DNA from: Escherichia coli
GTDB taxonomy: Bacteria > Pseudomonadota > Gammaproteobacteria > Enterobacterales > Enterobacteriaceae
Strand: one strand, 5' to 3'
NCBI GenBank assembly: GCA_025336725.1
Contig: GCA_025336725.1_3647.1
Length of the DNA: 64,000 nt
Each line of letters starts with the position of its first letter. Positions within the stretch are counted from its first letter, which is position 1. A model generated the notes under the pieces. That model worked only from the letters and a program-made list of their open reading frames with translations. It was not told the origin of the DNA and did no database searches. This document shows positions 21,321 to 58,879 of the stretch, one piece after another. The translations under genes were made by a program, and so were the position numbers.

Positions 21321-21332
21321 TACACGCTCCCC

Positions 21333-21878: not shown

Positions 21879-22218
21879 AGATTATATGTGGTGATGTATT
21901 TACCCTACCAGTAAAAGAAAATACACCATCTTTAATTACAGCGTGGTCTGACAGGGTAGATTTATCTTCCACCGCAAACCCAGTCTTATCAACAGAATGT
22001 TTGAAAGAATAGTTCTCAACCTGGTCGAAGATAATGGCAAGATCGTTAGTAAAGTTTTTACCCTTCATCTCCGTATTGCGACCACCATAGTTAAGACCGC
22101 TGACAAACATAGTATACTTTACATCGCTTTCAGTTTGCTGCTCTGCCTTTTCAGCCTTTGGAGATTTAACCTCTTGAGGCTTGTACAGGTCTTTTTCATC
22201 AACTATATTGCTTGGCAT
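21793..22218 (-). CDS. hypothetical structural protein
   Basis: 141 aa ORF; overlaps the following ORF by 86 nt in a different frame. Confidence 0.35.
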   Translation of the reverse strand: MPSNIVDEKDLYKPQEVKSPKAEKAEQQTESDVKYTMFVSGLNYGGRNTEMKGKNFTNDLAIIFDQVENYSFKHSVDKTGFAVEDKSTLSDHAVIKDGVFSFTGRVNTSPHIIYEQNYIDRNTDSKNPAASMRLAALHWKL

Positions 22219-22282
22219 AACCTCTCCAGGACACTCCTATACCATCTAGATATTGTATCATAAACAGCTACGTTTTTACAAC

Positions 22283-22312
22283 ACCGATAAAATAAAGGGG
22301 GCCGGAGCCCCC
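22283..22312 (-). terminator. rho-independent terminator
   Basis: Minus-strand hairpin GGGGGC-UCCG-GCCCCC followed by UUUAUUUUAUCGG; separates the tape-measure region from the baseplate genes. Confidence 0.7.
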
Positions 22313-22637
22313 TGCACAGTTTATTACCAAAGGTCGGTAGACATGAAGTTGATATCTTTATTGTTCTCCCACTCAAGTTTTGCATCAAATATTTTGTTAA
22401 ACTCGCCCTCATCTATTGAAATCGTGATTTTCCCATCACTGATCTCTAAAGGTAGCATTTCCATAGTTCTTAATTGAGAAGCAAAACCGAGGCCACCCCG
22501 GCAACGGAAAATCCCGCCCCATTAAGGTGTCCAAAGGATTAACAAACCCGTTACCTCAAATGAAAGTATCTTTGCGAATCATATCGCTGATAGCATCCAG
22601 CTGCTGATTTCTTTCACTTAGTGGGTTGTAACGGTCA

Positions 22638-23099
22638 TTAAATAATTCCGGCGCTTAGTATTATACCGATAATGCCCAGCTTACCGAGCAGACCAACTTT
22701 GCCACCAGGTGTCTTGAGGCCACCCCCACCTTTTCCTGCCGGAGCTCCACCACCAGATCCTTCTGTAGTAGCGGCACCAGCTGCTGCTGCTGCTCCAGCT
22801 GCACCCCTTAGAGAGTTAAGGAATTTAAAGGTTTTTACAAGCATGGATGCCATGACAAAACCTTTTGTTAGGGCGTTGACTACCAGCATGATGGCAGCAG
22901 CAAACCCTGCCCATTTAGCATAGCTAAAGGTGTCATGAAGCTCTTCAGAATATTCCTTCGTCTTAGCTGTTATGAATCCCCATTTAATCCCCCATTCAAG
23001 GAAAAACATGCGGATCTTGACTATAGTGTTGTTTAGTTCACCAACTACCCAGTTAAGGCCTCTCACAAACCCGCTAACAAAATCACCAGAGGCATCCAC
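22638..23099 (-). CDS. probable C-terminal fragment of the tape measure protein (hydrophobic, Gly-rich)
   Basis: 153 aa; hydrophobic segments plus GAAGAAAAAGAATTEGSGGGAPAGKGGGG...GIIGIILSAGII, as at tape-measure C-termini; lies downstream of the 415-aa helical ORF in another frame. Confidence 0.35.
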   Translation of the reverse strand: MDASGDFVSGFVRGLNWVVGELNNTIVKIRMFFLEWGIKWGFITAKTKEYSEELHDTFSYAKWAGFAAAIMLVVNALTKGFVMASMLVKTFKFLNSLRGAAGAAAAAGAATTEGSGGGAPAGKGGGGLKTPGGKVGLLGKLGIIGIILSAGII

Positions 23100-23161
23100 A
23101 CAAATTACGGGGAGTCTCGCCAGTGCGAATCAGTGTATAATGAACTCTGTTAATTCATCGC

Positions 23162-23371
23162 TTAACGGGTGAACAGCTTCTGACAGGATAATTCGATGAA
23201 GGTTTTCAGTCTGTTTTCTGCCAATGCGTTAGACTTCTGCATTCTTTCATAACCGGCTGCAGATGCCTCGTTCATATACTTAGCCACATACTTCATGATC
23301 TTGGCTGTCTTAACCTCACCTTTCTTCATCATGTCCATGAACTGATCCATGGACAGTTCAGAAAAGACCAA
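23162..23371 (-). CDS. short ORF between tape-measure fragments (possible frameshifted segment)
   Basis: 69 aa ORF (TTG start; first ATG is internal at MDQFMDMM) between the 415-aa and 153-aa tape-measure-like ORFs. Confidence 0.25.
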   Translation of the reverse strand: MVFSELSMDQFMDMMKKGEVKTAKIMKYVAKYMNEASAAGYERMQKSNALAENRLKTFIELSCQKLFTR

Positions 23372-23414
23372 AAGCCTCTTTGGTGGCTTTGATAAAGGTT
23401 ATGCGGGCAATGCT

Positions 23415-24662
23415 TCAGCAAGTTGTTGCTTCAGTTCTTCGGACATTACCTGTCCTTTCCCGAGCAATTTGCTGGATTGCCATGATACCACGCTGGTATT
23501 TTACCTCATCGGCACCATAAGCAGCAGCATACTGTGAGTATGCAGAAAACAGCTCATGCACTTCCTGATTTGTCATCTGGTTTTTGGCGTTTACCGACAT
23601 CTGGGCGTAACCTTGAAGACCAGATTTGAGATCAAAACCAAGACGCATAGCCTCTTGCTGGACAAACGCAACCTCACTGTTGGCTTTGTTTGGATCTCCA
23701 GTAACAGCAGTAAGAGCAGCACTTGCCCCCTCCATCATGTGACCAGATCTGTTCACAGCAGTAAATCCAGAGAAAGCCGTATACGCAGCTGTTGCATTAA
23801 TAACAGACCTACGTAAGTCTCTCATGGCATCACCAAGTGTAAGCGTTTGGCTGGTGGCGCTTTTAAATCCAGACTGCAGAGCTGACAGGTGGGCGTTAAA
23901 GGTTGACTTTTTCATCTCCCCGCGAGCAAACCTGGACTCTAACTCTGAGTATCCAGGCAAGCTTCCACGGAATCCGGCTCCATACTTGGCAGAAAGTCTT
24001 ATCGCAGAGTTGTAGAGGTGGGTTCTCCTTGCCTCACGATCCGACATAAGCCTATTATCCATGCCAGCTTTACTGTCCCTTCTTAGCTGTCTATGATAAC
24101 GATTCATAGCAGCTGTCTGAGCTTTCACAAGGTTAGGGTCGGAAGCCACACCACCCATATTAGGGTTACCAGGGATATACTTGAAAGATTTGGCATTAGC
24201 CAAAACTCTTGCCTTAGGTGCCTTATAACCGCCGTAAGACACTGGTGTAGATTTGGCAGCCTTTTTGGCCTCTTTAGCTTGCTGCTGGTAGAACTTACGC
24301 ATCCTAGCCATTTCTGGATTTTTAGCGGTAAGATTGCCTACAGCTTGTTTACGTCTCGCGTTCTCCCTACGTTCTATTGCGGCCCTTACTGCAGCCTCTT
24401 TCTTGGCTTGTGCTACGCTCTCCCTGTGCAGTTTAGCATTTGCCTGAGATTGCTGTCTGGCAACCCGCTGCATTGTTTGCTGGGTTTTAACAGCCACTGC
24501 CTGCCATCTACTCATCGGGTTGGCTGAGTTAAAATCCTCGCCAAGTTTCCTGAACTCCCTCCCAATACTGCGAATTTTCTCTACAGCTTTTTTGTAGGAG
24601 GAGTTCTCTATCTCAAAGCCAATCTTGTTGACTGTTGTGGCAACTATTTTGTTTGTAGCCAT
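23415..24662 (-). CDS. tail tape measure protein (N-terminal and central part)
   Basis: 415 aa, Ala/Lys/Arg/Gln-rich helical sequence; canonical position after the chaperone pair and before the baseplate genes; RBS GAGGAAAG before ATG. Confidence 0.45.
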   Translation of the reverse strand: MATNKIVATTVNKIGFEIENSSYKKAVEKIRSIGREFRKLGEDFNSANPMSRWQAVAVKTQQTMQRVARQQSQANAKLHRESVAQAKKEAAVRAAIERRENARRKQAVGNLTAKNPEMARMRKFYQQQAKEAKKAAKSTPVSYGGYKAPKARVLANAKSFKYIPGNPNMGGVASDPNLVKAQTAAMNRYHRQLRRDSKAGMDNRLMSDREARRTHLYNSAIRLSAKYGAGFRGSLPGYSELESRFARGEMKKSTFNAHLSALQSGFKSATSQTLTLGDAMRDLRRSVINATAAYTAFSGFTAVNRSGHMMEGASAALTAVTGDPNKANSEVAFVQQEAMRLGFDLKSGLQGYAQMSVNAKNQMTNQEVHELFSAYSQYAAAYGADEVKYQRGIMAIQQIARERTGNVRRTEATTC

Positions 24663-24670
24663 GCTTTCCT

Positions 24671-24711
24671 CATAATAAAAAGGGCCAGATCCCAGAAAAG
24701 GAATCCGGCCC
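24671..24711 (-). terminator. terminator-like hairpin between chaperone and tape-measure genes (possible attenuator)
   Basis: Imperfect 12-bp stem (GGGCCAGATCCC / GGAATCCGGCCC) with 6-nt loop, followed by UUUUUAUUAUG and then the tape-measure RBS. Confidence 0.4.
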
Positions 24712-25523: not shown

Positions 25524-26762
25524 TTAACCTTTCAACCAATCCAAGTATGCAGGATCATTTTTACCTTCATCGCTGTGCCATTCGAAGCGAGAGTTGCCGC
25601 TGTTTTCAAGGATATAGCAGCCTGCATTTTTAGCATTCCACTCTTGTGTTTTCTCAGGATCGTATAAGGACTCGTCCAACCCTAAATGCTTCAGTGTCTC
25701 TTGGATGTTTGACTTCCACCAAGCCTGTCTTGGCATTCTGCCACCACGGTAGCTCCAGAAGCTGGTAGATACCTGATCGTCCTCTGCCAAAATCCAGCCA
25801 TCCTCCTCCTTATAGGACACACCTGTGAAGTAATCCCTGTCAAGGAAGGATTGAACATGATCCATCTTAAACTCTTTTTGGATATGCTTAAACAGCTTAC
25901 TACGCCCACCAGGAACGTTACAGCTTGTTGCATACCTTACCATGTCCCACATAACGAAAGGGGTTACCTTTTGATCTCTGTTTTTCAATACCTTAAAACT
26001 CATACAAGCTACCAGCTCACCGTCAGATGTAAACAGACCCTTCTTCACTTCCTTGGCGGGAGCATACCCTTGAATGTGGTTTTTCTCCATAAAGTCACGG
26101 TAAGTTTTATTGTCCACATCCCTAACTGTGCACTTTCTGGCATAGACGGTCTTCTCGTCTTTGACTCCTAAAGCATTCTTAAGATATCTCTCAATGATAG
26201 GTCTTTTCCGAGCATCCTGCCAATCACAATCCCATATAGACAACATGCGAATACCTTGTTTTTCACAGGCCTTCCTTTTCAGGATGTGGTACCATTTCCC
26301 CTTACTATCCACGGAGTGCCAATAGGCACCATTATATTCCACAGCAAGCTTAAGCTCCGGGATATAAATGTCCAGCTCCATCTTTTTCTTGGAAGGATCT
26401 TTAAAGTTGTCCAGAATCCGCACGTTCTCTTCAATATCTCCGCTATAGACACTTTTAATGAACGTCAGGATCTCTTTTTCACCATTAGACTGATTGCGAC
26501 AGCAACGAGGGCATCCTTGTCCTTTCCCGTAATGGAATTCAGGACGCTGCATGAAGATATTCCCACACTCTTTGTGGCGCATCATCATAGGCGTTGAGGC
26601 GTTCACATAAGAGTCTTCAAAATACTCATAATCCCCACCATGAACTTCTACACATCTCTCAACTATTTCTTGGAAGCTAGGAACTTTTTTCACAGAAACA
26701 GACCTTGCTGCGCAAGTCTTGCACCCTTGCCCAGATAAATGCTTGCTGGGTTTCTGATACAT
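25524..26762 (-). CDS. homing-endonuclease-like protein (Zn-ribbon N-domain plus restriction-endonuclease-like core)
   Basis: 412 aa; N-terminal VHGGDYEYF...C...GQGCPRC zinc-ribbon; then GEKEILTFIKS...LDIYIPELKLAVEYNGAYWHS resembling Vsr/DUF559-type nuclease folds; inserted between tail genes. Confidence 0.45.
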   Translation of the reverse strand: MYQKPSKHLSGQGCKTCAARSVSVKKVPSFQEIVERCVEVHGGDYEYFEDSYVNASTPMMMRHKECGNIFMQRPEFHYGKGQGCPRCCRNQSNGEKEILTFIKSVYSGDIEENVRILDNFKDPSKKKMELDIYIPELKLAVEYNGAYWHSVDSKGKWYHILKRKACEKQGIRMLSIWDCDWQDARKRPIIERYLKNALGVKDEKTVYARKCTVRDVDNKTYRDFMEKNHIQGYAPAKEVKKGLFTSDGELVACMSFKVLKNRDQKVTPFVMWDMVRYATSCNVPGGRSKLFKHIQKEFKMDHVQSFLDRDYFTGVSYKEEDGWILAEDDQVSTSFWSYRGGRMPRQAWWKSNIQETLKHLGLDESLYDPEKTQEWNAKNAGCYILENSGNSRFEWHSDEGKNDPAYLDWLKG

Positions 26763-26849
26763 TATTCTTCCGCACGTTTTGCAATGAATCTCAACCTTAT
26801 CCCAGAGGTCTTGCTTACTACATGGCTATGACCATACTTTTCAGCATTT

Positions 26850-27149
26850 TCAAGGATATCTTTTTAATACCTTTTTGATCCACTCCTCGGTAGTGCACCT
26901 GTTACCACGCTCATGTGGGAATTTCTTACCCTTTCTTGATTTTGCAGATCTCTCAGCTCCACAAACAGGGCATCCTCTTTTTAGATTTATATGGTTATCA
27001 GGTGTCTGGTTGAAGTGGTTACCGCAGGTATTGCAGACTATTTCTACCTTATCTTTGCATGTTTTGTATTCTATAAGAGAATAATCGTACTTATCTCCGT
27101 GAACCCTACGAGCTTTTTCGATAAACCTTTCTGCACTCAATTTAGCCAT
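26850..27149 (-). CDS. Zn-ribbon protein paralogous to the N-domain of the adjacent endonuclease-like gene
   Basis: 99 aa; ARRVHGDKYDYSLIEY...CNTCGNHF...GCPVC parallels the N-terminus of the 25524-26762 product. Confidence 0.45.
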   Translation of the reverse strand: MAKLSAERFIEKARRVHGDKYDYSLIEYKTCKDKVEIVCNTCGNHFNQTPDNHINLKRGCPVCGAERSAKSRKGKKFPHERGNRCTTEEWIKKVLKRYP

Positions 27150-33735: not shown

Positions 33736-34209
33736 TTATTTGTTAGATTCTGCACGTGCACGAGCAAGTGCTTTTGCAACGTTTTCAGCAAGAATTTCTT
33801 CTGCGGATTTTGCAATATCATCCACAACAGGTTCGCCATCATTACCATGTTCAGTGGTGGCAAACTCTTCTTTGGTTTTATGCACCTCTGCTTCCAGCTC
33901 TTCAATTTTTGCTTGAGCTTTCTCCAGCATAGCTACGATAGGTTCGTTAGCTTTTTCCAGCATGAAGTCAACCAGGGTTGCATGATCTTCTTCACCAACA
34001 AAGCTTAAAGCTTGAGCTTTAGCCAGCATTTTAGCTTTTTCAACTTCAACCTGGGCCTTGATGATTTCTTCAGCTTTACTCTGGGTTGCTTTCAGCTCTT
34101 CTACTTGCTTCAGCAGATCCAGATACTCTTTAGTTTTGGTTACGTCCACCGGATTCTCCTCGGTATTTGCGGATTTTGCAACATCATCCACCTCGGTAGT
34201 TTTATCCAC
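33736..34209 (-). CDS. scaffolding protein
   Basis: 157 aa, highly charged and helical (EELKATQSKAEEIIKAQVEVEKAKMLAKAQ...KIEELEAEVHKTKEE); located between portal and capsid genes. Confidence 0.5.
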   Translation of the reverse strand: MDKTTEVDDVAKSANTEENPVDVTKTKEYLDLLKQVEELKATQSKAEEIIKAQVEVEKAKMLAKAQALSFVGEEDHATLVDFMLEKANEPIVAMLEKAQAKIEELEAEVHKTKEEFATTEHGNDGEPVVDDIAKSAEEILAENVAKALARARAESNK

Positions 34210-34229
34210 CTCAGCAGGTTCCTGTCTAC

Positions 34230-34715
34230 TTAACAGATCAGGTTCCCTTCTTTATCGAAGAGATCAGCGGTTACTTGTTCAAAAATCTGTTGTGTTTTTA
34301 ACGAACTGCTCTGATCTACCACGTTAAGCTGCTTGCCTTCTTTTGCAGCTTTATGAATGGTCACGTTATCACAACGCTCTTCCAGCCATGCAATGCAAGA
34401 CTCTGCGTCAGCTTGCGCCCATTCCCAATCAGGATGCTCTTTAGCCCAAGCTTCCTCTTCAATCTCAAAACCAAGCATGTGTGCGAGTGCTTTGGCATCG
34501 TCATACCACATATCGAAGAAACGACGCAGGTATTCTTCAAAACTCAGCTCCACAGTAACTTGGCGAAGTGCCTTAACAATATCGTCTGTTAACTGCTCAG
34601 GCTGAAGATCACTCTTCATCAAAAGAGATACAGGTCTGTTGTTAGCGCTATAGCCTTGCGCCTTATGGCACAGGGCAATCCCCTTCTCTTTAATAGTGAT
34701 TGTTTTTTCAGACAT
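34230..34715 (-). CDS. hypothetical head morphogenesis protein
   Basis: 161 aa ORF in the head module. Confidence 0.35.
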   Translation of the reverse strand: MSEKTITIKEKGIALCHKAQGYSANNRPVSLLMKSDLQPEQLTDDIVKALRQVTVELSFEEYLRRFFDMWYDDAKALAHMLGFEIEEEAWAKEHPDWEWAQADAESCIAWLEERCDNVTIHKAAKEGKQLNVVDQSSSLKTQQIFEQVTADLFDKEGNLIC

Positions 34716-35134
34716 TATTCATTGCCCTCTTCTACAACACTGATCCCGAAATTTACATTGGTAATTTCGCCCGTCTCTTCATCAACATTACCTGTTGCCT
34801 GAATGCTTAGGCCACCAACAATGCCAGCCTTCTTAGCTTCCCATAATTCAGGATTATTGTATTTAACTTTAGCAACCCAAGAGCCAGCCTTGATGACCTG
34901 CTCAGTACCAATTACTACAACATCAAACTCTTCTTGAATCCACGTCTTTTCAATAGTGAAAGCATCTGTAGAGGTCAAGTGAAAAAGGTTTTCAGAAACT
35001 AGGCCTGCGGCGTATGCTGCGTCCCAATTATCTTTAGCCTTTTTGATAGTGTCTTTACTCATCCACTCACCGTGAGCATCTTTAGTGTCAGGTTCGTAGA
35101 TGATTTCGTAGGAAATCATTTCTTCCTGTGGCAT
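34715..35134 (-). CDS. hypothetical head morphogenesis protein (possible prohead protease)
   Basis: Track ORF 34715-35290 overlaps the portal gene by 88 nt; likely start is the internal ATG at 35132-35134 (MPQEEMISYEI). Function by position only. Confidence 0.3.
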   Translation of the reverse strand: MPQEEMISYEIIYEPDTKDAHGEWMSKDTIKKAKDNWDAAYAAGLVSENLFHLTSTDAFTIEKTWIQEEFDVVVIGTEQVIKAGSWVAKVKYNNPELWEAKKAGIVGGLSIQATGNVDEETGEITNVNFGISVVEEGNE

Positions 35135-36860: not shown

Positions 36861-38003
36861 TTAGATAAAACGCTTGAACATAGAGGGTGATGAGATTGAT
36901 GGAATCACACAAGGCAGCGCTACCTCCTCTTTCTCCAGGAAATTAATCGCAGAAGCTACACAGTCGGCCCAGTCGTCTTTTCTGTTAAATGTTGATCTTT
37001 CCCCGTTGAATTTTTCAAGTTCAGTCAGAAATGCTTCCAGAGTATCAGGATGAAAACTGGATTTTACAATCCTCACCATCCCTTGTTGGGCAAGATTGGC
37101 AAAAGGTGAGAACCTTGTCAGTTTAGATTTGTTGGAAGGCATTGGGTCTTCTTCAACCCTGAACCCTTCGGCGAGCAAGGATCTGGATGAGGTTAAGAAC
37201 TCACTCTTACCTGCCTGACCAGGGTCCACAGAAAATACGATTATGCAATCATCTCCATCAAACTGCGCCTGTTTTCTGATGATCACATCTCGTTCCCCAG
37301 CCTTTTTACAGAACTTGCCTTCCAGACCTGTGGAATACCTCCCGTCATCCACGTTCTCAGGACAATAGTCCCCAGATAGGTAATAAAAGCCGTCGCTATC
37401 TTTACTTACCTTAACACTGGCGGTAAAGTCAGGAAATTTATTACCGGAAGTTCTCTCGGTTCCTGCCTTATCCCATGCCCTGCAAGATACTGATCCAAGA
37501 GGTACTCTATCGGCATCACGAAGGAAAGATCTTTGGAAATAGTTTGCACCCTCAGGTTTGGCAAACCAGTTGCCATGAAGAAGCTGGGCTTTTTCCAGCT
37601 CTGGCAGACCTTCAAGGAAAGCAAGGTATTCTGGGTTGTCTCTCAGGCATACAGGATTATCGAAAATTGTTGCGCCTATAAACGAGAATGACAACGGTCT
37701 TGGCTTGATTTCCACACCTAGTCCATTGACCGTAGTGTATTTCTCTATTAACTCCTCTTTAGAGTCTCCCCAGATAAACTCACCGTCGCGTCGGATAAAA
37801 TATCTTTTCTTACCACATTTCTCCGGATCTGGATACCCTTCATCGTCCAACCACCACCTAACCAGTTTGGCAAGCATGTGTTCTGAGTCGGGGTTACAAC
37901 TGATAACCATTCTTGATGGATACTTTGACTGAGATCGCAGACGAGACATCAAATAGTCTATCTGCTCCCATTCGAATTGCGTGCCTTCATCGAAGCAAAC
38001 CAT
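36861..38003 (-). CDS. terminase large subunit, C-terminal portion (Walker B plus nuclease domain)
   Basis: 380 aa; starts ...MVCFDEGTQF (hydrophobic run plus DE = Walker B). In the same reading frame as the upstream 125-aa ORF, separated only by TAA at 38031-38033. Confidence 0.6.
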   Translation of the reverse strand: MVCFDEGTQFEWEQIDYLMSRLRSQSKYPSRMVISCNPDSEHMLAKLVRWWLDDEGYPDPEKCGKKRYFIRRDGEFIWGDSKEELIEKYTTVNGLGVEIKPRPLSFSFIGATIFDNPVCLRDNPEYLAFLEGLPELEKAQLLHGNWFAKPEGANYFQRSFLRDADRVPLGSVSCRAWDKAGTERTSGNKFPDFTASVKVSKDSDGFYYLSGDYCPENVDDGRYSTGLEGKFCKKAGERDVIIRKQAQFDGDDCIIVFSVDPGQAGKSEFLTSSRSLLAEGFRVEEDPMPSNKSKLTRFSPFANLAQQGMVRIVKSSFHPDTLEAFLTELEKFNGERSTFNRKDDWADCVASAINFLEKEEVALPCVIPSISSPSMFKRFI

Positions 38004-38030
38004 GGTGTATTCAAGTCCTTGATGGTTAGT

Positions 38031-38408
38031 TTATCTTGGACATACTCCATGTGGCAGTATTTTACAACGGCCTCCTTTTTTGCTCCTGTCCCACTTGCCA
38101 GTGCTCGGATCAAACCGTGGAAAAATAAACTTATGATCCTTCTCTCTGAACTTTGGTTTAATGTTTTCAGGCAGATCACTGTAAATAGCTACTGCTTTAG
38201 GCCATAGCCCACCCTCACCTTCCAACTGTGGAGTTGTTCTTCGGAACATAACCACAGAGCTGTGTGGGTCATCAATAATTTTAAGTGGCATTAGCTGCAA
38301 GAGGAACGACTTGCCAGAACCGGCTGCACCTCCGATCACCAAAATATCTGCATCGTTCTCAAGGATCATCTTCTGCTTTTCAGAACACGGTCCGTAAATC
38401 TTAGACAT
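38031..38408 (-). CDS. terminase large subunit, N-terminal ATPase portion (Walker A)
   Basis: 125 aa; Walker A VIGGAAGSGKSF; ends at an in-frame TAA 27 nt before the Walker-B ORF. Confidence 0.6.
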   Translation of the reverse strand: MSKIYGPCSEKQKMILENDADILVIGGAAGSGKSFLLQLMPLKIIDDPHSSVVMFRRTTPQLEGEGGLWPKAVAIYSDLPENIKPKFREKDHKFIFPRFDPSTGKWDRSKKGGRCKILPHGVCPR

Positions 38409-44879: not shown

Positions 44880-44924
44880 AGAAGTGGAAAGTTCTTTTTA
44901 ATCATTCCAGCTTAAGGGAGCTGT

Positions 44925-45533
44925 ATGAAACTTGTGCATGGTGTTGGTGTTAATGATGCAGACTATCCTGTCAGGGTTTTAGACAAGGATACCGGAAAGA
45001 GAATCATGTGTCCTTTTTATATGACATGGTCAAATATGCTAGGAAGGTGCTACCTTAAAAACAAGAAATTTGAAGCTTATGCTATGGTAGAAGTTTGTGA
45101 AGAATGGAAAATCTTCAGCAACTTTAAGCGCTGGATGGAAAAACAAGATTGGCGGGATAAATTTTTAGATAAAGATATCCTGTTTGAAAATAATCTTATA
45201 TACTGTCCAGAAGCGTGTATTTTTGTTCCTCGTGAAATAAACAACTTCTTTGTAGCAAGGGTACCACAAAGAGGGGAGTGTTTGATGGGAGTAAGAAGAA
45301 AAGGCCCATCTTTTGCTGCCTATTGCAAAGATGGGGTTAATGACACACAGGTTTATCTTGGAACCTTTCCCACGCAGATTGAGGCACATATGAAATACTT
45401 GGAATGCAAACTGCAACTTCTTAGAGACTTGATTAGAACTGTAGATGACAGTAGGTTGCTATTAGGATTACGAAGAATTGAGAGTAAGATAGTTTTAGCT
45501 TTATCTTCAAAAACACCGATAGAAAATTTTTAG
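44925..45533 (+). CDS. homing-endonuclease-like protein with AP2-type DNA-binding domain
   Basis: 202 aa; N-terminal YMTWSNMLGRCY...EAYAMVEVCEEW motif common to phage endonuclease-associated domains; C-terminal VYLGTFPTQIEAHMKY AP2-like segment. Confidence 0.45.
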   Translation: MKLVHGVGVNDADYPVRVLDKDTGKRIMCPFYMTWSNMLGRCYLKNKKFEAYAMVEVCEEWKIFSNFKRWMEKQDWRDKFLDKDILFENNLIYCPEACIFVPREINNFFVARVPQRGECLMGVRRKGPSFAAYCKDGVNDTQVYLGTFPTQIEAHMKYLECKLQLLRDLIRTVDDSRLLLGLRRIESKIVLALSSKTPIENF

Positions 45534-45541
45534 AGGGATGT

Positions 45542-45889
45542 ATGAAAGTCTGGATAGATGATTTGCGTAACCCAGCTGATTACGGACAGGCAGATGCAGT
45601 TTGGTTTAAAACTTCACAAGAGGCTATGGAGTTTCTCAATACTCCTGCTAAAATGTATCGAAGAGTGACAGAGTGGTTTTTTGACCACGATTTGGGTGAA
45701 GACTCTGATCAAGACGGGTATGCTGTTTTATTGCGCCTGGAAGAGCTATTTGTATTTGGCAAGCCACCTGTTGTTGACAACGTGAAGATTTTCGTGCATA
45801 CTTCTAACCCATCAGCAGCTCGTAAATTTATGCTTGCTGCAGATTCGTTCAGAAAGTTTGGAATAGAGATCAAACAGAACATTTACTGA
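45542..45889 (+). CDS. hypothetical protein
   Basis: 115 aa ORF; conserved-looking Asp-rich motifs (WIDDLRNP, DHDLGEDSDQDG); function unknown. Confidence 0.4.
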   Translation: MKVWIDDLRNPADYGQADAVWFKTSQEAMEFLNTPAKMYRRVTEWFFDHDLGEDSDQDGYAVLLRLEELFVFGKPPVVDNVKIFVHTSNPSAARKFMLAADSFRKFGIEIKQNIY

Positions 45890-49442: not shown

Positions 49443-49931
49443 ATGAAACTTGATAAAAATGTTCAACGAAAAGCTTTCTTGGATATGATCGCATATTCAG
49501 AAGGCACAGATAATGGTAGACAACCTACCAAGGATCGGGGATACGATGTCATAGTTGGTGGCAAGCTGTTTAGCGATTACAGCAAGCATCCAGGTGTGTA
49601 CGTTAAGCTAAATTCTAAACTTACCTCCTCTGCCGCTGGTCGTTACCAAGTTTTGGAGAAGTTTGCTAAACACTATATGAAGCAGTTAGGATTGCCAGAT
49701 TTTGGCCCTGACAGTCAGGATAAGATTGCCTTACAGCTAATCCGTGAGTGCAAGGCACTTGATGATATTGATGAAGGGCGTATTCATCAGGCCATTTATA
49801 AATGCCGCAGCCGCTGGGCAAGCTTCCCACCACCACCAGGGGCTGGAAAGCTGTACAATCAGCGAGCAGAAAGTATAGACAAGATGCTGGAGATCTTTAA
49901 GAAGGCAGGTGGAGTTGTTACAGATGAGTAA
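49443..49931 (+). CDS. endolysin, lambda R-like lytic transglycosylase
   Basis: From ATG 49443 (GGAGAG RBS): MKLDKNVQRKAFLDMIAYSEGTDNGRQPTKDRGYDVIVGG...AAGRYQ closely parallels lambda R (NQRKAFLDMLAWSEGTDNGRQ...GYDVIVGG...GAGRYQ). Confidence 0.75.
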   Translation: MKLDKNVQRKAFLDMIAYSEGTDNGRQPTKDRGYDVIVGGKLFSDYSKHPGVYVKLNSKLTSSAAGRYQVLEKFAKHYMKQLGLPDFGPDSQDKIALQLIRECKALDDIDEGRIHQAIYKCRSRWASFPPPPGAGKLYNQRAESIDKMLEIFKKAGGVVTDE

Positions 49932-50607
49932 CGGGATTGACTGGTGGAGTGTCTTTAGATACGATACAGGCACTGGAAGGTTGTTTTGGAAGTCCCCACC
50001 AAAAAACAAACCTCAACTGATGGGAAAGGAGGCTGGATGTACTAACATGGACGGGTACAGGGATATAATCTATCGCGGCGTGCATTACTACAGGCATAGA
50101 TTGGTGTGGGAGATGCATTATGGACCAATTCCAGAAGGGTACGAAGTTGATCACATAAAGCCACTTTTCTATTCCGATGGTGTTGCTGATGACAGGATAG
50201 AAAACCTACAGCTGTTAACACCAGAAGAAAACGCAAAAAAGGCGGCAGATGACGGATGCCTGGCACGCAAGATACCTAAATCTAACACTGGACACTTGGG
50301 TGTATATTTTCATGCTAGAACTGGAAGGTATGCTGCTTTTGGTAAGGTAGGTCATTACTATAAGAAAGACCTAGGAGAATACGATACCTTAGAAGAGGCC
50401 CTTGCTGCTCAAAAGTCTTTTGAAAGTGGCACGTTTGTCAGGGAATATCGTGGACAGCCTTTAGGGAGGGATAAATCTAGAGGTGTCAGATTTGAAGCAG
50501 ATAGGGGCAAATGGAAAGTAACTTTCAGAGGAAAAACGATAGGCAGGTTTGACACCAAAGAGTCTGCTGAAGCGTGTTACGCAAAGGCTCTTGCTGAAAG
50601 ATTGTAA
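49909..50607 (+). CDS. HNH homing endonuclease with AP2 domains
   Basis: 232 aa; HNH motif YRHRLVWEMHYGPIPEGYEVDHI...ENLQLLTPEEN; two AP2-like segments (GVYFHARTGRYAAFGK, GVRFEADRGKWKVTFRGKTIGRFDTKESAEACY). Confidence 0.7.
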   Translation: MELLQMSNGIDWWSVFRYDTGTGRLFWKSPPKNKPQLMGKEAGCTNMDGYRDIIYRGVHYYRHRLVWEMHYGPIPEGYEVDHIKPLFYSDGVADDRIENLQLLTPEENAKKAADDGCLARKIPKSNTGHLGVYFHARTGRYAAFGKVGHYYKKDLGEYDTLEEALAAQKSFESGTFVREYRGQPLGRDKSRGVRFEADRGKWKVTFRGKTIGRFDTKESAEACYAKALAERL

Positions 50608-50615
50608 CAGTATCA

Positions 50616-50882: not shown

Positions 50883-50894
50883 GCGGGGGATTAC

Positions 50895-51357
50895 GTGGAA
50901 GACGGTCGTTTAATGAAGTCTGAACGCAGGCTTATTGTGCAGCTGATCCCAGAAACAGCTTGGTATAATAACCTACGAAACGCTGTGAAGAAGAGCGAGT
51001 GGGATAAGATCCGTAAGAAGTGCTACAGAGAGGCCAACTACACTTGTGAGGTGTGTGGCGGTAAAGGTAGCAAACACCCAGAATTAGTGTCATGAACTTT
51101 ACACTTTCGAAGGGGGTGATCGGCTTGTAGGACTGATAGCGTTGTGCCCAGACTGTCACACATCGGTGCATCCAGGGTTAGCAAATATCCGTGGAAAGTA
51201 TGCTCAGGCAGTTAATCAGTTGGCTAAGGTGAATAAGATCACCAAGGGTATGGCAGAGGCCTATTACCGAGACTGCTTTGCAGAGTGGCGTGAGCTTAGT
51301 AAAGTTCCAGAATGGAAGACTGACTTTTCGTGGATAGAGGGTTACCTTGATGGCTAA
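50895..51357 (+). pseudogene. HNH-type nuclease split by a frameshift near 51085-51095
   Basis: ORF 50895-51095 ends ...CEVCGGKGSKHPELVS; the next frame is open from 51088 and reads CHELYTFEGGDRLVGLIALCPDCHTSVHPG...; together they give a CxxC...H...CxxCH...H HNH signature. Confidence 0.45.
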
Positions 51358-51699: not shown

Positions 51700-52008
51700 A
51701 TGCTTAAAATTTTTATTGTTGAAGATAAAGATATTGTCCAGTTGTATGCAAACGAGAATCATAAAGGTATGATTCTGAAGAAGGCAAGCAACCTTCATGA
51801 AAACACAATTCAACCTGGTGATGTAATTAAGATCTGTGGTTATATGATGCCAGACTCCTTGATGAAAATAACCCACCACTGGGGGTCTAATCCGTTCCTT
51901 TTTGAAAAGTATTGGGATGTTGAATCACTTATTGCAGAGAGTGATGATGCATTCCATTACAGCATCCAACCATCTTGCAGAATAACTAACAGGAGGGTCT
52001 TTGAGTAG
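51700..52008 (+). CDS. hypothetical protein
   Basis: 102 aa ORF with AGGAGAA RBS. Confidence 0.4.
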   Translation: MLKIFIVEDKDIVQLYANENHKGMILKKASNLHENTIQPGDVIKICGYMMPDSLMKITHHWGSNPFLFEKYWDVESLIAESDDAFHYSIQPSCRITNRRVFE

Positions 52009-53140
52009 AGAATATCCACTTATTGAGTCCATAGATTGTCTGGCTGATCTTCTTGAACCTGACGCTATAGTTTATTATGACTTCGATCAGGTTGCGTATC
52101 AAGCTGCAGCAAGTTGTGAAAAAAGGACAATTGAGGTAACACACAAAGCCTCCGGACGTAAGAAGATGTTTAAAACACGAACAGAGTTCTGGGGGCGGCA
52201 GAAGAACACCGTTGGTGGTTGGTTAAAAGCTGAGAATACCAACCGTGAAGCTGCATGTAAAAAGGCTGGCAAGGAGTTTATTCCGTGGACACGAGAAGAT
52301 TTCGATGTCTTGGATATCCAAACACCTGATCCTGTAGAGAACTGCTTGCACACAATTAAGTGTAAAGCTAATGCAGTTCTTAATTATCTTGGTATTCCTG
52401 AAGATCGGTGCGTGGGGGTACTTGGAGGCACAGGTAATTTCAGACTAGATCTTCCCATGCCGGAAAGATATAAAGCCAACCGTAACAATACTCTTCGACC
52501 ACTGCTGCTTGGAGATGCAAGACAGTATCTCCAAAAGCAGTATAATGCTCAAGTGATCAACGGTATCGAGGCTGACGACTGGTTAGCTATCCAGCAATTT
52601 GAAGGTTGGAACCACTACCAAAAAACAGGTAAGTTCAACAAGTTTATTATCTCTATTGATAAGGACCAAAGAACACTACCGGGGCTTGTGTTCGATCCCA
52701 TGCGAAACGATAAGGGAGATTTTGTAAGGGAAACCCCTATGCTGATCGATAACGGTATGGGGAACATCTTCATGAAGCCTAATGGAGAGGTTGGTGGTTA
52801 CGGAATGCTGTTCTTCGGATACCAAATGCTGTGTGGTGACTCTGCTGACAACATCAAGCCGTATCAAGGACTTATCGGTAAGGGTAAGTTCGGGGATGCC
52901 TCAGCATTCTACCTGCTGTCTCAGTGCAGCACTCCAAAGGAGATGTGGGTGGCTATTATTGATCAGTACAAGAAGTGGTTCCCGAAAGGTGTTGTTAAGT
53001 ATACTGACTTCAATGGTATTGATCGTAGAATTTCCGTAGGTCAATGGATGAGTATAATTTTTGACTGTTTGTATATGAAGCGAACATTCAATGATCAAAC
53101 AAAACTTGTTAACGTTCTTAGAAATGTTGGAGCAATTTGA
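52001..53140 (+). CDS. 5'-3' exonuclease / flap endonuclease (RNase H-like)
   Basis: 379 aa; motifs IEADDWLA and LCGDSADNIKPYQG typical of FEN/Pol I 5'-nuclease family. Confidence 0.6.
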   Translation: MSREYPLIESIDCLADLLEPDAIVYYDFDQVAYQAAASCEKRTIEVTHKASGRKKMFKTRTEFWGRQKNTVGGWLKAENTNREAACKKAGKEFIPWTREDFDVLDIQTPDPVENCLHTIKCKANAVLNYLGIPEDRCVGVLGGTGNFRLDLPMPERYKANRNNTLRPLLLGDARQYLQKQYNAQVINGIEADDWLAIQQFEGWNHYQKTGKFNKFIISIDKDQRTLPGLVFDPMRNDKGDFVRETPMLIDNGMGNIFMKPNGEVGGYGMLFFGYQMLCGDSADNIKPYQGLIGKGKFGDASAFYLLSQCSTPKEMWVAIIDQYKKWFPKGVVKYTDFNGIDRRISVGQWMSIIFDCLYMKRTFNDQTKLVNVLRNVGAI

Positions 53141-53472
53141 TGACTAAAAATGCTGTAGATAACGCAATTATGGAAGCTGTTTTTGAGGATGACCATACAA
53201 CAGGGACACTTAAAACAAAAAACACATTCGTTGTTGCCACAGGTATGTGGCGGTTGTATGAAGATGACACCATTTCATACATCCTGTACACGGATGATTA
53301 CGCAGATGACCGTGTATGGTCTGCTGTTTTAAAAGAGGATTGTGAGCTGATTGATGGCGAGCGGTTATGCATGTTCACCAGTGTGGAAACCGATGTTAAG
53401 CTTTGCTCTCTCGTCTTGTTCAAAGATAAGGCTTATGCTCCTGATGAAGGAGAGGAGGATAAGGAAGCATGA
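53137..53472 (+). CDS. hypothetical acidic protein
   Basis: 111 aa ORF. Confidence 0.4.
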   Translation: MMTKNAVDNAIMEAVFEDDHTTGTLKTKNTFVVATGMWRLYEDDTISYILYTDDYADDRVWSAVLKEDCELIDGERLCMFTSVETDVKLCSLVLFKDKAYAPDEGEEDKEA

Positions 53473-54096
53473 GAGAGCGTCTATTATCCATAGACCAGTC
53501 GTTGACACACACAGCTTGTGTTGTATGGGACGATGGAAAGCCTGTTCATAAGGTTGTATTACGAACTCAAAGCTCATCTGCAAAAGAGAAGAAACCAGGG
53601 ACGGTTTCTTTTGCAACAGCTGCTGAGCGTATTGACTGGATCTGCAAACAGGTCAGATATTATATCCACACGCACGGAGTTGACACCGTGGTTATGGAAG
53701 GGCTTTCCTTTGGATCACGCGGGGATGCCACACGTGAACTGGCGGGTTGTTTTACGGTCTCGAAGTATGCTTTGGGATGCTTTAGCAGATTGTGAAAATG
53801 ACGGCCTGTTTAAGGTCCACACAGTAACACCGACAACCGCCAAAAAGTTTGCTCGTAGTCATCTTCCTGAAGAACTTGCTTTTGAGGAGAAGAAAAAGCT
53901 TGACAAAAAGACAGGTAAAGAGCATACTGTGAAGAAACCTGTTACGATGGATAAAAAGTTAATGGTTAAGGCCTGTGAAGTATCTGAACCAGGGTTTCTG
54001 GATGGGATCAATTTAAGATACAAGGTAAGGCCGATCTGCAGATGCCTACGGATAGGCAGGGCGCATCTGGAGGGATTATCGCAAAGCGTAAAATAA
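53469..54096 (+). CDS. RuvC-like resolvase-family protein, reading frame shifted near 53770-53800
   Basis: Frame A (53469-53795) has LLSIDQSLTHTACVVWDDG...VVMEGLSFGS (RuvC-like Asp/Glu motifs); frame A then hits stops while frame B continues ...LWDALADCENDGLF... to 54096. Confidence 0.35.
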
Positions 54097-54651
54097 GAAA
54101 GAAAGCTGTCAAAGCTCCCGTTCATAGCGGGTGGCTAAAAGATTCTAAGGACATAGCCAACTTTCGGAAAGAATTGTCAGAAGAGCAGGATGGCCTTGAT
54201 CCGATCTTGTGCGAGCCACTTCGTAAGCCTTGTTTAGATCATGATCATCTGACTGGTCGTTGCAGAGGTGTTTTGTCCCAATGCACTAATACCTTTGAAA
54301 GATATGTGCTTAAATACTGGATGAAATACTGTAGCGAGTATCAGGTGCAGTTTATCAGAGGCGTTGCGCCGGATGGCTGACTATCTGGAGAAAGACTACA
54401 GCGACTTCCCGCTCCACAAAAACTACAGAGACGATATGACAAAGTTCTTGAGGAGATGCTCTAAAGCCACAATTATTGCACGAGCAGAATCGGATCTCGA
54501 TCTTGTCATTAATCCAGAGTACACTAAGCATGAGGCTATTGAAGCCTACATGCAGGAGTTCATAAAGAAAACTGAGGAGAGAGACTTCTATGGGGATGAA
54601 AAAGGTATTCAATCCTTGCGATTCAGTTCTGATCAGGATGAAATACCGTAA
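54042..54651 (+). CDS. endonuclease VII-like resolvase (T4 gp49-like), reading frame shifted near 54365
   Basis: Frame A has QDGLDPILCEPL...CLDHDHLTGRCRGVLSQCTN (T4 gp49: QNGKCLICQREL...LDHDHELNG...RGLLCNLCN); after the stop at 54378-54380 the next frame continues ADYLEKDYSDF... (T4: VDYLEWLENLL). Confidence 0.45.
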
Positions 54652-54811
54652 CTGGAAAGGTGTTGTTGCAGATCGCCGCGTTACTGAACCTAATTTATGG
54701 TTTGGTTCTACAGAGTATCATAAAGAAGAGCAGTGGTTGATGCATGCCTTTGATGTAGACAAGGGCGAATATCGTGACTTCGCTTTAAAAGACATTCTTC
54801 AGTTTTACTAA
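54590..54811 (+). CDS. hypothetical protein
   Basis: 73 aa ORF; overlaps the end of the resolvase reading frame, so its start is uncertain. Confidence 0.3.
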   Translation: MGMKKVFNPCDSVLIRMKYRNWKGVVADRRVTEPNLWFGSTEYHKEEQWLMHAFDVDKGEYRDFALKDILQFY

Positions 54812-54823
54812 GGAATCTTAACG

Positions 54824-55807
54824 ATGATGACAAAGTTAACTCTTGAGCAAATTTTAACACTAAAGCAACAGGGATACACTAATAGACAAATTGCTCGTGA
54901 ATTTTTAGGCCGTGAGTCACGTGAGAGCTGGATCCGACTACAGCTTAAACGTGCACAAGAGAATATGTCAGAGATTGTAGGAGAAGCAACGGAGCGCTTC
55001 CTTGAAGAGCACAAAGGCGCTAAAGTTTGGGTGTATGATACAGAGACATCCCCAACAAACGGCTGGTTCTTTGGGCACTATAAGACCAACATTCAAACCT
55101 GTGGTATTGAAGTTATGCCTTATATGCTAACTTTCGCAGGTAAGTGGTTAGACAGCCCTAGTGTGGTTGACTGCGCTCTTCCCGATTACAAAATGTGGAA
55201 TGAGGATATTCACAATGATCTCGAATTGATTCAGGATTTGTGGTATTATCTGGATAAATGTGATGTCGCAGTAGCCCACAATTCAGGTTTTGACTGTGGG
55301 TGGGCCAACCAACGATTTGCATTTCACGGGTTGCCGCCAACAAGCCCATACAAAGAGGTTGACACCCTCAAAATGATCAAGAAGGCATTCCGTTTGAATG
55401 CAAACACTTTGGAGTATGCATGCAAATACTTCCAACTTGCCAGACAGAAACTGATTGACCACACATTTGAAATGTGGATCAAGTGTGTTCACGGTGATCT
55501 TGAGGCGTTTAAACAGATGCGGGAGTACAATGTTGGTGATATCCTATCTCTGGAAGGCCTGTATTTGCTGGCTCGTCCGTTTGCTAAGCAGCACCCCAAC
55601 ATGTCATTGTACTACCAGGACGAGGAGCCAAAAGTTCGTTGCCCACGCTGTGGTGGAGAACACCTTCACGAGGAAGAAGCTTTGGCGTATACTCAATTGA
55701 GTGCATTTAAAACATACCGCTGCGAAGGTTGTGGATCTGTTGTTCGTGATCGTAACAACATCCGTACCAGAGAAGAAATGAAAAACACCCTGATTCAGAT
55801 AGTCTAA
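54824..55807 (+). CDS. DnaQ-like 3'-5' exonuclease with N-terminal HTH and C-terminal zinc ribbon
   Basis: 327 aa; HTH-like N-terminus (LTLKQQGYTNRQIAREF); DEDD exonuclease motifs VWVYDTETSP and VAHNSGFDCGW; C-terminal CPRCGG...CEGCGS. Confidence 0.5.
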   Translation: MMTKLTLEQILTLKQQGYTNRQIAREFLGRESRESWIRLQLKRAQENMSEIVGEATERFLEEHKGAKVWVYDTETSPTNGWFFGHYKTNIQTCGIEVMPYMLTFAGKWLDSPSVVDCALPDYKMWNEDIHNDLELIQDLWYYLDKCDVAVAHNSGFDCGWANQRFAFHGLPPTSPYKEVDTLKMIKKAFRLNANTLEYACKYFQLARQKLIDHTFEMWIKCVHGDLEAFKQMREYNVGDILSLEGLYLLARPFAKQHPNMSLYYQDEEPKVRCPRCGGEHLHEEEALAYTQLSAFKTYRCEGCGSVVRDRNNIRTREEMKNTLIQIV

Positions 55808-57107: not shown

Positions 57108-57311
57108 TTGGAGGCCACAATGACACTAAAGTTAACAATTCCAGACAGCTTTTCAGAAAACTTTATCCCAGAAATGATGGATAAGATGCGATCATTGCTT
57201 GATCAGATCGAGGAAGCTGTTTGGGAAGACGATGCTGTAGTGGCTAACGAGCTGGTAGATAAGTGTAAAAGTATTATTGATGCAGTTGAAGAATACCACG
57301 GAGGTTTTTGA
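57108..57311 (+). CDS. hypothetical acidic protein
   Basis: 67 aa ORF with GGAGG RBS. Confidence 0.4.
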   Translation: MEATMTLKLTIPDSFSENFIPEMMDKMRSLLDQIEEAVWEDDAVVANELVDKCKSIIDAVEEYHGGF

Positions 57312-58879
57312 TGGATATTATTGTTCTTAATGCACCACCGTGCTGCGTCCCGAGTGGTACAGAGTTCCTCACCAAATCCGGGTGGAAAAGTATAGAAGAT
57401 TTTGATAATGATTTCGTGGCGGTGTGCGATAAATTTGGGGCAATGCATTGGGAGATACCTGAATTTATTGAAGGCAATACTCCAGTTTTTGAAAAGGGCG
57501 TTTTTGCCACATGGTCTATGGTTTTAACACCTAACCACAAAGTTCTGTATGAAAACAGAAGAGGATCAAGAATTGCTAGAGAGTGGTCAGAGATAACTTT
57601 GGAATCCAAAACTGGCTACGATGGATATATACCTGCCACCTTCCATCAAGAGTCTGGAGAGGATGTGGACGATTTTGACCTGCTTAGAGTTGCAATCCTA
57701 GCAGACTCTTCTGAGGTTAAAAACCGAGAAGGTGTGTTAATGTTTAATATTAAAAAGGACCGTAAAAAGGAGAGGCTGCGATACTTATTTAAAAGAACTG
57801 GAGTAACCTTTTCCGAAAAAGAGTTTGAGAGTATGCCTGGTTACACCCGTTTTTTCATTCACAACAGCCCTTTCATGAAGAAAGATGGTATACCTAGCCA
57901 CTGGTGGAATCTCTCTTCCAAGGCCAGTGAAAAACTACTAAACGAGATGCTGAAATGGGATGGGTGCGAGAAATACAAATCTTTCTCAACCACTTCTAAA
58001 GAGGAGGCAGATCTATTTCAGCTTTTAGCAGCAAAATGTGGGAGAAAGGCCAAAATTGAAATAGATAACTACAAAAGGGAGTGTGATGAAGAGAGCAGAA
58101 CTCGTAGCGTTTGCTATGCGGTAAAAATTCTAAAGTCAGACTCTTATTCGATGCGTAAAAGTGGCGGATATGATAATCCCGATAAAGCTTTTCAACCTTA
58201 CAAAGAGGAGTTACCTGGGGGTAAGTGTTACTGCTTTACCACAACAACCGGATTTTGGGTGGCAAGACAAAACGGTATGGTGTTTTTAACAGGTAACAGT
58301 GGAAAAGACCATATTGCAGATCTCTTGTTGGAAGCTATTCCTAACTCACACCACCGTGAGGTTAAGGAGATGCTATTCAGTGTGGCAATTAAGGCAGCTG
58401 GTGTAACTCCTCAGCTCTGGAATGCACTTTATGACCGCCACTACAAAGAAGAGCCTTGCCCTTTCTTAATGATAGACGGCAAGCATGTTTCTCCGCGAGA
58501 ATGGATGATCCATTGTAGTGAAAATCTGATTAAACCTATCTTTGGTGAAGATGCTTTCGGTAAAGCCGCAGTCGCATCTTTGAAGAAAGATTTCCCTGAA
58601 GGTAAAGGGGTTATTGTTTACTCCGATGGTGGATTCAAAGAGGAGCTGGCATGCCTTAGTGAGTACGCATACAGCACAGGTGGAGATCTGTTGTTGTTCC
58701 GTATTCACCGTGTCGGATATGACTGGGGAAATGATTCCAGAACCTATCTAAGTCTGGAAAAGAACGGAATAAAAGGGATTGAGTTTGATGTTGTAAACCC
58801 TGAAGGTGCACCTTGGGAATGTGCATCGGAGATTGTGTGCAAGTATATTGATGCTAAAGAGGCACAAGAAGAATGTTAA
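57311..58879 (+). CDS. dNMP-kinase-like P-loop kinase interrupted by an intein
   Basis: ATG 57311 after GGAGG. Exteins MDIIVLNAPPC + SGKDHIADLL... reconstitute a T4 gp1-like P-loop (T4: MKLIFLSGVKRSGKDTTADFI); the C-extein (193 aa) has further kinase-like segments. Confidence 0.5.
   Translation: MDIIVLNAPPCCVPSGTEFLTKSGWKSIEDFDNDFVAVCDKFGAMHWEIPEFIEGNTPVFEKGVFATWSMVLTPNHKVLYENRRGSRIAREWSEITLESKTGYDGYIPATFHQESGEDVDDFDLLRVAILADSSEVKNREGVLMFNIKKDRKKERLRYLFKRTGVTFSEKEFESMPGYTRFFIHNSPFMKKDGIPSHWWNLSSKASEKLLNEMLKWDGCEKYKSFSTTSKEEADLFQLLAAKCGRKAKIEIDNYKRECDEESRTRSVCYAVKILKSDSYSMRKSGGYDNPDKAFQPYKEELPGGKCYCFTTTTGFWVARQNGMVFLTGNSGKDHIADLLLEAIPNSHHREVKEMLFSVAIKAAGVTPQLWNALYDRHYKEEPCPFLMIDGKHVSPREWMIHCSENLIKPIFGEDAFGKAAVASLKKDFPEGKGVIVYSDGGFKEELACLSEYAYSTGGDLLLFRIHRVGYDWGNDSRTYLSLEKNGIKGIEFDVVNPEGAPWECASEIVCKYIDAKEAQEEC
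57344..58297 (+). mobile_element. intein (Hint domain with LAGLIDADG-like endonuclease segment) in the kinase P-loop
   Basis: Starts CVPSGTEFLTKSGWKSIEDF (Hint block A), has TPNH (block B), LAGLIDADG-like LLRVAILADSS and FQLLAAKCG, ends ...MVFLTGN followed by Ser +1; 318 aa. Confidence 0.5.

Follow-up and report, generated by a model that had tools for sequence, protein, structure and literature searches.

The window, by which we mean the whole 64,000-nt stretch of DNA that was analyzed, is part of an rV5-like (Vequintavirus) phage contig inside an Escherichia coli draft assembly. When positions 53100-55000 were used as a megablast query, 121 phage records matched at 90-97% identity, each covering at least 80% of the query. 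The matching records were nearly all titled Escherichia, Shigella or Campylobacter phages, and those inspected were Vequintavirus; among the matches listed (25 of 121), each spanned 1905 bp versus 1901 bp in the window. Complete E. coli genomes were searched for the locus or a closer copy of it, and no match was found. Exact-sequence look-up identified products of the window as MCT7477476.1, MCT7477477.1 and MCT7477479.1 (N5V81_22020, N5V81_22025 and N5V81_22035), deposited under 'Escherichia coli'. The products of N5V81_22020 and N5V81_22035 were unique to this assembly, each being recorded on one contig of 122,420 bp, and most complete relatives, at 132-140 kb, are longer than that contig.

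The genes of the locus lie on the plus strand in the order 5'-3' exonuclease, 110-aa gene, RuvC-like gene, endonuclease VII (EndoVII) gene, 73-aa WYL-like gene and DnaQ-like exonuclease. The 5'-3' exonuclease gene (52001-53140, 379 aa, phrog_107 at E=6e-71) is intact, with 99.5% amino acid identity to magaca_66 of the Vequintavirus relative magaca, and its exact protein was present on 200 contigs. It is followed by an intact gene of 110/111 aa (53137-53472), 97.3% identical in amino acids to its magaca orthologue (the orthologue matches phrog_7583, E=6e-57), which lies directly upstream of the RuvC-like gene and overlaps it by 4 nt. On the far side, an intact 73-aa WYL/Sm-like gene (54590-54811, phrog_3715) overlaps the 3' end of the EndoVII gene; it shares 98.6% amino acid identity with magaca, and its Pfam WYL match is weak (E=0.005). 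The intact DnaQ-like 3'-5' exonuclease, or DNA polymerase exonuclease subunit, comes last (54824-55807, 327 aa); it matches phrog_403 at E=2e-110 and PF00929 weakly, and its exact sequence is that of MCT7477479.1 (N5V81_22035).

The two genes in the middle are broken. In the ORF list of the window, 53469-54651 is tiled by four ORFs in alternating frames: ORF1 (53469-53795, frame 0, 108 aa), ORF2 (53518-54096, frame 1), ORF3 (54042-54380, frame 0, 112 aa) and ORF4 (54364-54651, frame 1). Using tblastn, the 209-aa RuvC-like protein of magaca was placed with aa 1-95 at 53469-53753 and aa 101-209 at 53767-54093, in different frames (E=4.5e-99), and the 201-aa magaca EndoVII with aa 2-98 at 54051-54341 and aa 101-201 at 54346-54648, also in different frames (E=7.4e-109), matches far stronger than chance would give. 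The alternating ORFs, these alignments and the family matches given below bore out the preliminary description, which had seen here the pieces of a RuvC-like and an EndoVII-like gene, each interrupted. Profile searches, which had been set as a possible refutation, supported both families (phrog_159 for the first gene, phrog_423 and PF02945 for the second).

The first of the pair is a broken RuvC-like Holliday-junction resolvase gene at 53469-54096. It runs in frame 0 from 53469 to about 53743, in frame 2 for 22 nt and then in frame 1 to a TAA at 54094-54096. ORF1 (53469-53792) matched phrog_159, 'RuvC-like Holliday junction resolvase', at E=8e-26 over profile positions 86-183, and the intact orthologue matched the same family at E=3e-39. 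Pfam searches of the window fragments and of the intact orthologue gave no match to RuvC (PF02075), and phmmer of the protein against the PDB returned nothing meaningful. A homologue search from the RuvC-like protein reached proteins of 157-161 aa, two of which (P0075 and P0077) carry PF02075. In a 30-sequence alignment of the homologues, E77, D189 and D192 were invariant and D9 was present in at least 90%; G186, D189, D192 and A193 were invariant in these 30 homologues, down to 30% identity. The sole PDB match at E<=1 for the 30-sequence profile was Deinococcus radiodurans RuvC (E=0.54). The fold was examined in P0047, a 95%-identical orthologue, and not in the broken window sequence. Its AlphaFold2 model (pLDDT 92.9, pTM 0.89) retrieved RuvC at all of Foldseek PDB ranks 1-13 (E 2.6e-7 to 7.9e-5, target-normalized TM 0.68-0.77), with matches from Thermus, Deinococcus, Pseudomonas, E. 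coli and lactococcal phage bIL67. Thus, the PHROG match, the (near-)invariant acidic tetrad and the RuvC fold of the orthologue model support the assignment of this gene as a RuvC-like resolvase, as had been proposed from the bare sequence.

The second gene, at 54042-54651, is a broken endonuclease VII-like gene, read in frame 0 over its catalytic half (54042/54051-54341) and in frame 1 over its C-terminal half (54346-54648, stop at 54649-54651). ORF3 matched phrog_423, 'endonuclease VII', at E=2e-20 over profile positions 4-81, and ORF4 matched the same profile over positions 88-158. The intact orthologue matched phrog_423 at E=3e-37 and scored 31.8 bits against PF02945, versus a gathering cut-off of 23.6; the window fragment 54042-54380 fell just under that cut-off, at 23.1 bits, because the frame break cuts the domain. 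T4 EndoVII (PDB 1e7d) matched the orthologue by phmmer at E=1e-4 over T4 residues 37-153. In the 1e7d alignment, the T4 catalytic residues D40, H41, H43, N62 and E65 were matched by LDHDH and by the N and E of CTNTFEG, and the window ORF keeps the H-N-H catalytic residues (CLDHDH...CTNTFER). Of the four T4 zinc cysteines (C23, C26, C58 and C61), C58 and C61 align to S and T, with Cys at neighboring columns (GRCRG, SQCTN, ILCEPLRKPC), some of which are absent from a more distant EndoVII homologue. The Pfam score above the cut-off and the 1e7d match support the identification of the second gene as an EndoVII with parallels to T4 gp49, and this part of the preliminary description therefore stood.

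Alignment to magaca and 241Ecol014PP revealed six small indel events in the window relative to its relatives, with a net change of -4 nt and with adjacent substitutions at several of them: -1 at 53744, -1 at 53767, +2/-1/-1 at 54016-54050 and -2 at 54342-54346. The first two are single-base deletions against all relatives (53743-53767, plus strand), and ten relatives were without an indel there. A T is absent after 53743 (CTGGC^GGG), and at about 53766/7 a TT pair is reduced to a single T (GAAG^TATG); together, with a net change of -2, they change the reading frame of the RuvC-like gene from 0 to 1. A frameshift had been described near 53770-53800; the break itself was confirmed and its position was corrected to these two deletions, the stop at 53795 being where the break becomes visible.

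The third lesion of the RuvC-like gene is a garbled patch of net zero length at 54016-54050 (plus strand), consisting of 2 extra nt at 54016-54018 (TTTAAGATAC versus TTTGGTAC), a C absent after 54037 and a T absent after 54048/9. It turns the invariant GKADxADAY catalytic motif INLVQGKADLADAYWIG into INLRYKVRPICRCLRIG, or, in wider context, ...VQGKADLADAYWIG... into ...RYKVRPICRCLRIG.... The patch also removes the TTG that is annotated as the EndoVII start in magaca and, by coincidence, brings an upstream ATG (54042) in frame with EndoVII. As written, the window holds no D-E-D-D tetrad in one polypeptide: D9 and E77 are in frame 0, and the D189 and D192 codons lie inside the patch, which reads ...RYKVRPICRCLRIG in frame 1. 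One break per gene had been counted before; this held for EndoVII and not for the RuvC-like gene, in which the patch had been missed.

The last event is a 2-nt loss with adjacent substitutions at 54342-54346 (plus strand; TATCAGG--TGCAG versus TATACAGATTGCAG), which leaves the catalytic half of EndoVII in frame 0, puts its C-terminal half into frame 1 and leads to a premature stop at 54378-54380. The EndoVII break had been expected near 54365; a break was indeed found, and it lies at the 2-nt loss rather than there, ahead of that stop. Consequently, the catalytic and C-terminal (dimerization) domains are not in one chain in the window, which stops at 54380 after 112 aa with the C-terminal 101 aa in the other frame, whereas relatives have one 201-aa chain. 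The window as written has no full coding sequence for the RuvC-like protein or for EndoVII. When the indels were undone, ORFs of 209 and 201 aa were obtained again, and the acidic tetrad D9/E77/D189/D192 was brought back. A methylation-motif (GATC) signature of errors was considered and rejected, as just two of the six sites are near GATC.

In magaca, both genes are intact and overlap by 49 nt; the RuvC-like CDS of 630 nt is annotated 'RNaseH', and the EndoVII CDS of 606 nt is annotated 'packaging and recombination endonuclease', with a TTG start. The 209-aa RuvC-like gene was also called in 241Ecol014PP and in eight Logan assemblies, and in many public annotations EndoVII is reduced to its last 92 aa. 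The module recurs in more distant members of the Vequintavirinae, and published genome descriptions of the subfamily list a RuvC-like resolvase and an endonuclease VII (PMC12942863; PMC11370258). The RuvC-like and EndoVII tandem is therefore conserved across Vequintavirinae and already annotated. The preliminary description had regarded two resolvase types side by side as unusual in itself, a view that did not hold for this lineage, as the pair was found intact in all 121 matching phage records and occupied 1187 bp in ten aligned relatives.

The same relatives bear on whether the frames are joined in expression. It is extremely unlikely that programmed ribosomal frameshifting or recoding joins them, or that RuvC and EndoVII domains belong to one gene covering the span, the latter having been offered earlier as an alternative; the relatives refute the multi-domain gene, and their single-frame orthologues refute frame joining at the shift sites of the window. 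Such readings would fit the EndoVII ORF of the relatives, which is without an ATG upstream of the catalytic motif and overlaps the RuvC-like ORF in the -1 frame. However, all relatives examined read each shift site in one uninterrupted frame, and in all of them the RuvC-like ORF ends with TAA and a separate EndoVII ORF lies in another frame. Moreover, the two genes are set apart in Salmonella phage SSBI34, in which a 212-aa gene is inserted between them, and in L014 (a 147-kb ENA contig), in which the next called gene downstream of the RuvC-like gene lies about 250 nt away and the EndoVII ORF begins inside this gap. An X XXY YYZ slippery heptamer was sought in the 49-nt overlap by eye, not systematically, and none was seen; on this ground and because distant relatives keep the genes apart, a natural RuvC-EndoVII fusion by -1 frameshifting in that overlap was rejected. 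In the preferred reading, the frame breaks are not part of how the two genes work.

The length conservation of the span was quantified. All ten relatives measured exactly 1187 bp over the two genes, and their 45 pairwise comparisons gave 902 mismatches and 0 gaps, whereas the window compared with each of the ten gave 7-8 gap openings and 36-44 mismatches. Substitutions were then counted against magaca in the ancestral codon register. The RuvC-like gene had 18 synonymous to 2 non-synonymous changes, both of the latter inside the garbled patch, and EndoVII had 16 to 8; the corresponding counts for neighbor genes were 10:2, 5:3, 3:1 and 23:5. The ratios of 18:2 and 16:8 indicate that purifying selection acted on both genes throughout essentially the whole of their divergence. 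A long-standing pseudogene was ruled out by this pattern, which gives no sign of relaxed selection. Almost certainly, then, the indels are errors of sequence or assembly or, at most, very recent lesions.

We then looked for the shifted products in other sequences. Among about 15 billion proteins, the 187-aa frame-1 product clustered with no other and was recorded on one contig; an exact look-up of it in a gene-position index had none on record, and four other fragment variants, looked up exactly, were absent from the collection. Contigs with an identical copy of the 92-aa C-terminal piece were about 94% identical over the locus of about 6 kb, and their genes were intact.

Breaks were also found elsewhere in the window. 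The tape measure gene (778 aa) is broken into open stretches of 427, 78, 163 and 65 aa, with about 20 indel events relative to magaca. Also broken compared with magaca are two tail/baseplate-region genes (m107 and m111), the head decoration gene m94 and the HNH gene m69, and the frames of m118 and m122 are broken in part. The sequence is garbled over short patches, several of which involve a changed homopolymer length; patches outside the two resolvase genes lie at 19085-19110, 21792-21817, 22499-23467, 34226 and 50884-51121. A second relative, A51.2, gave the same breaks as magaca. Over a 6.6-kb tail region, the window differed from A51.2 by 243 mismatches and 29 gap openings, whereas A51.2 differed from magaca by 124 mismatches and 1 gap. 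Since a virulent phage with its tape measure gene in five pieces would not be viable, patchy error is the simplest reading. Vequintaviruses are virulent and are not known to be maintained by lysogeny.

Taken together, we infer, with a probability of roughly 0.85, that the indels are sequence or assembly errors in one draft contig and that both proteins are probably encoded whole in the actual phage. Unpolished or low-coverage patches may have led to base-calling or assembly errors, for example in a long-read consensus lacking short-read depth. Several observations counted against this reading. The closest relatives are about 97% identical, and no near-identical genome that would isolate the indels was found. 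Several indels lie outside homopolymers and have adjacent substitutions, which real local mutation could produce likewise; the +2/-1/-1 patch regains the downstream frame, as compensatory evolution would; and the amino acid change in EndoVII (16:8) is somewhat above that of the neighbors.

If the indels were real, the contig could derive from a defective, recently decaying rV5-like genome, for example in a carrier state, in which the resolvase and structural genes are new pseudogenes. In keeping with this, the breaks sit in the deposited assembly, from whose shifted frames PGAP called proteins, many genes on the contig are broken, as in a decaying element, and the 122,420-bp contig is shorter than a full genome. 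We nevertheless consider such decay unlikely. It would require that the indels arose very recently and in a burst while the amino acids hardly changed, and the indel-to-substitution ratio is more than 10 times that between true relatives. Furthermore, the substitution pattern is that of a functional gene (18:2 for the RuvC-like gene), protein identity is high in most of the other genes compared, and the shifted products are common to no other assembly.

The clustering at the two resolvase genes could alternatively mean that a viable phage shed the two junction nucleases adaptively, as a targeted loss, for example to escape a host defense that senses them, the other breaks being unrelated errors. 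Six events do fall within 600 bp over exactly two functionally related genes, and the flanking genes are intact within about 1.5 kb on each side. However, one frameshift per gene would have been enough, which leaves six unexplained; comparable indel clusters occur in unrelated genes, as in the tape measure gene; and neither gene was lost in any relative. Adaptive loss is accordingly very unlikely. More generally, that the indels are real and that this lineage recently lost both junction nucleases is quite unlikely. If it were true, the RuvC-like and EndoVII-like enzymes would both be non-essential in an rV5-like phage, or the contig would represent a non-lytic, decaying episome in E. coli; real breaks would in either case bear on whether the two resolvases are dispensable.

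With sequence error as the preferred explanation, what was found is a gene pair known before, which a contig of low quality shows in broken form. The contig then serves as a quality flag: what look like pseudogenes, split genes or novel ORFs in it, including the 187-aa product deposited as MCT7477476.1, should not be taken at face value. Annotation of the pair could also be improved, as EndoVII is often cut to its C-terminal 92 aa and the RuvC-like gene is labeled 'RNaseH'. In the intact phages, the two nucleases belong to a replication/recombination module, placed between the 5'-3' exonuclease and the DnaQ-like exonuclease, the first being a RuvC-like enzyme whose fold is RNase H-like and whose acidic active site is of the D-E-D-D type and the second an EndoVII-like H-N-H nuclease related to T4 gp49. 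By analogy with bIL67 RuvC and T4 gp49, the intact proteins would cut Holliday junctions and other branched DNA, with predicted roles in recombination-dependent replication and ahead of packaging. In intact relatives, the conserved tandem may represent a division of labor between a RuvC-type and an EndoVII-type resolvase in one phage. Why phages keep both nucleases is a question of the whole subfamily Vequintavirinae and not of this window; our literature search found no paper treating the tandem as such or that question.

Compared with known systems, the second gene resembles T4 gp49, the well-characterized prototype of endonuclease VII. T4 gp49 (1e7d, 1en7 and 2qnc; PF02945) shares with the phage protein the LDHDH...N..E motif and the C-terminal helical domain, and they differ in length, the phage EndoVII having 201 aa as annotated (its start may be the TTG that overlaps the RuvC-like gene or a TTG farther downstream) versus 157 aa in T4 gp49. 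The RuvC-like protein shares with RuvC (4ld0, 7xhj, 6lw3 and 1hjr; bIL67, 4ktw) the RNase H-like fold and, in the phage family, the acidic tetrad. Its identity to the RuvC structures is 12-16%, and the 157-161-aa homologues lack a stretch of about 40 inserted residues that it carries at roughly aa 130-160, modeled as a beta-hairpin. RuvC of lactococcal phage bIL67 is the well-characterized prototype of a phage RuvC (PMC3864405). Finally, in the Vequintavirus pairs (magaca_64, QHR71122.1, with magaca_63, QHR71121.1; 241Ecol014PP, rV5 and CM1, among others), the genes, their order and their neighbors match those of the window, and the DNA is 95.6-96.3% identical across the two-gene span and about 97% identical across the locus around it. 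With the indels undone, the 209- and 201-aa proteins of the window are near-identical to these orthologues; the window alone carries the six small indel events, which are without counterpart in any Vequintavirus relative.

Frame breaks in the window are not restricted to the RuvC-like and endonuclease VII-like (EndoVII) genes. Short garbled indel patches also break the frames of further genes within 18537-24698 and 33739-34718 on the minus strand and 50883-51354 on the plus strand, and the same genes are intact in the related phages magaca and A51.2. On the minus strand, the affected genes are the tape measure gene (22327-24698) and the counterparts of the magaca genes m107 (patch at approximately 21792-21817), m111 (approximately 19085-19110), and m94, a head decoration gene (approximately 34226); on the plus strand, the HNH gene m69 is affected (approximately 50884-51121). 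The break pattern in these genes matches that of the RuvC-like/EndoVII pair and points to a quality problem of the whole contig.

Annotation of the pair itself varies between records. For the RuvC-like gene (53469-54096) and its orthologues, many GenBank entries give the name "RNaseH," "ribonuclease H," or "hypothetical protein"; fold and motif evidence indicate that the product is a putative RuvC-type resolvase carrying an approximately 40-residue insertion. As for the EndoVII gene (54042-54651, corresponding to 2451-3056 in L001, a relative's locus), no ATG occurs 5′ of the catalytic LDHDH motif in rV5-like phages, and the annotated start differs: some records use a TTG that gives a 49-nt overlap with the RuvC-like gene, whereas others use an internal ATG, leaving only the C-terminal 92 aa. 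In L014, the locus of a more distant subfamily relative, a TTG aligned with residue 43 opens the EndoVII ORF (3244-3663).

Comparison with magaca also revealed additional sequence. An approximately 1.65-kb insert absent from magaca lies between two tail-region genes (25524-27149, minus strand) and carries two ORFs: one of 412 aa, which contains zinc-ribbon-like CxxC pairs, and one of 99 aa, which matches DUF723 and treble-clef zinc-finger models. The insert may be a free-standing homing-endonuclease-type insertion. Furthermore, a 523-aa ORF (57308-58879, plus strand) matches magaca_57 (204 aa) over its C-terminal 194 aa, while approximately 950 nt of it (57339-58297) have no counterpart in magaca. 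Judged from its junctions (..NAPPC/CVPSGTEF.. and ..FLTGN/SGKD..), this extra stretch looks like a putative intein placed in a P-loop; a Pfam search of the 523-aa ORF returned no match. Four stretches in the tail-fiber and early-gene regions (7244-7667, 11975-12994, 44888-45750, and 49819-50612) lacked a megablast-level match to magaca, appearing as HSP gaps, and are probably ordinary mosaic variation.

In other Vequintavirinae, an intervening element between the terminase large-subunit pieces has been described (PMC12942863). The two pieces are annotated separately in magaca and lie approximately 350 nt apart, whereas those in the window (36864-38408, minus strand) share one frame and are separated by approximately 34 nt; the window appears to lack the intervening element.
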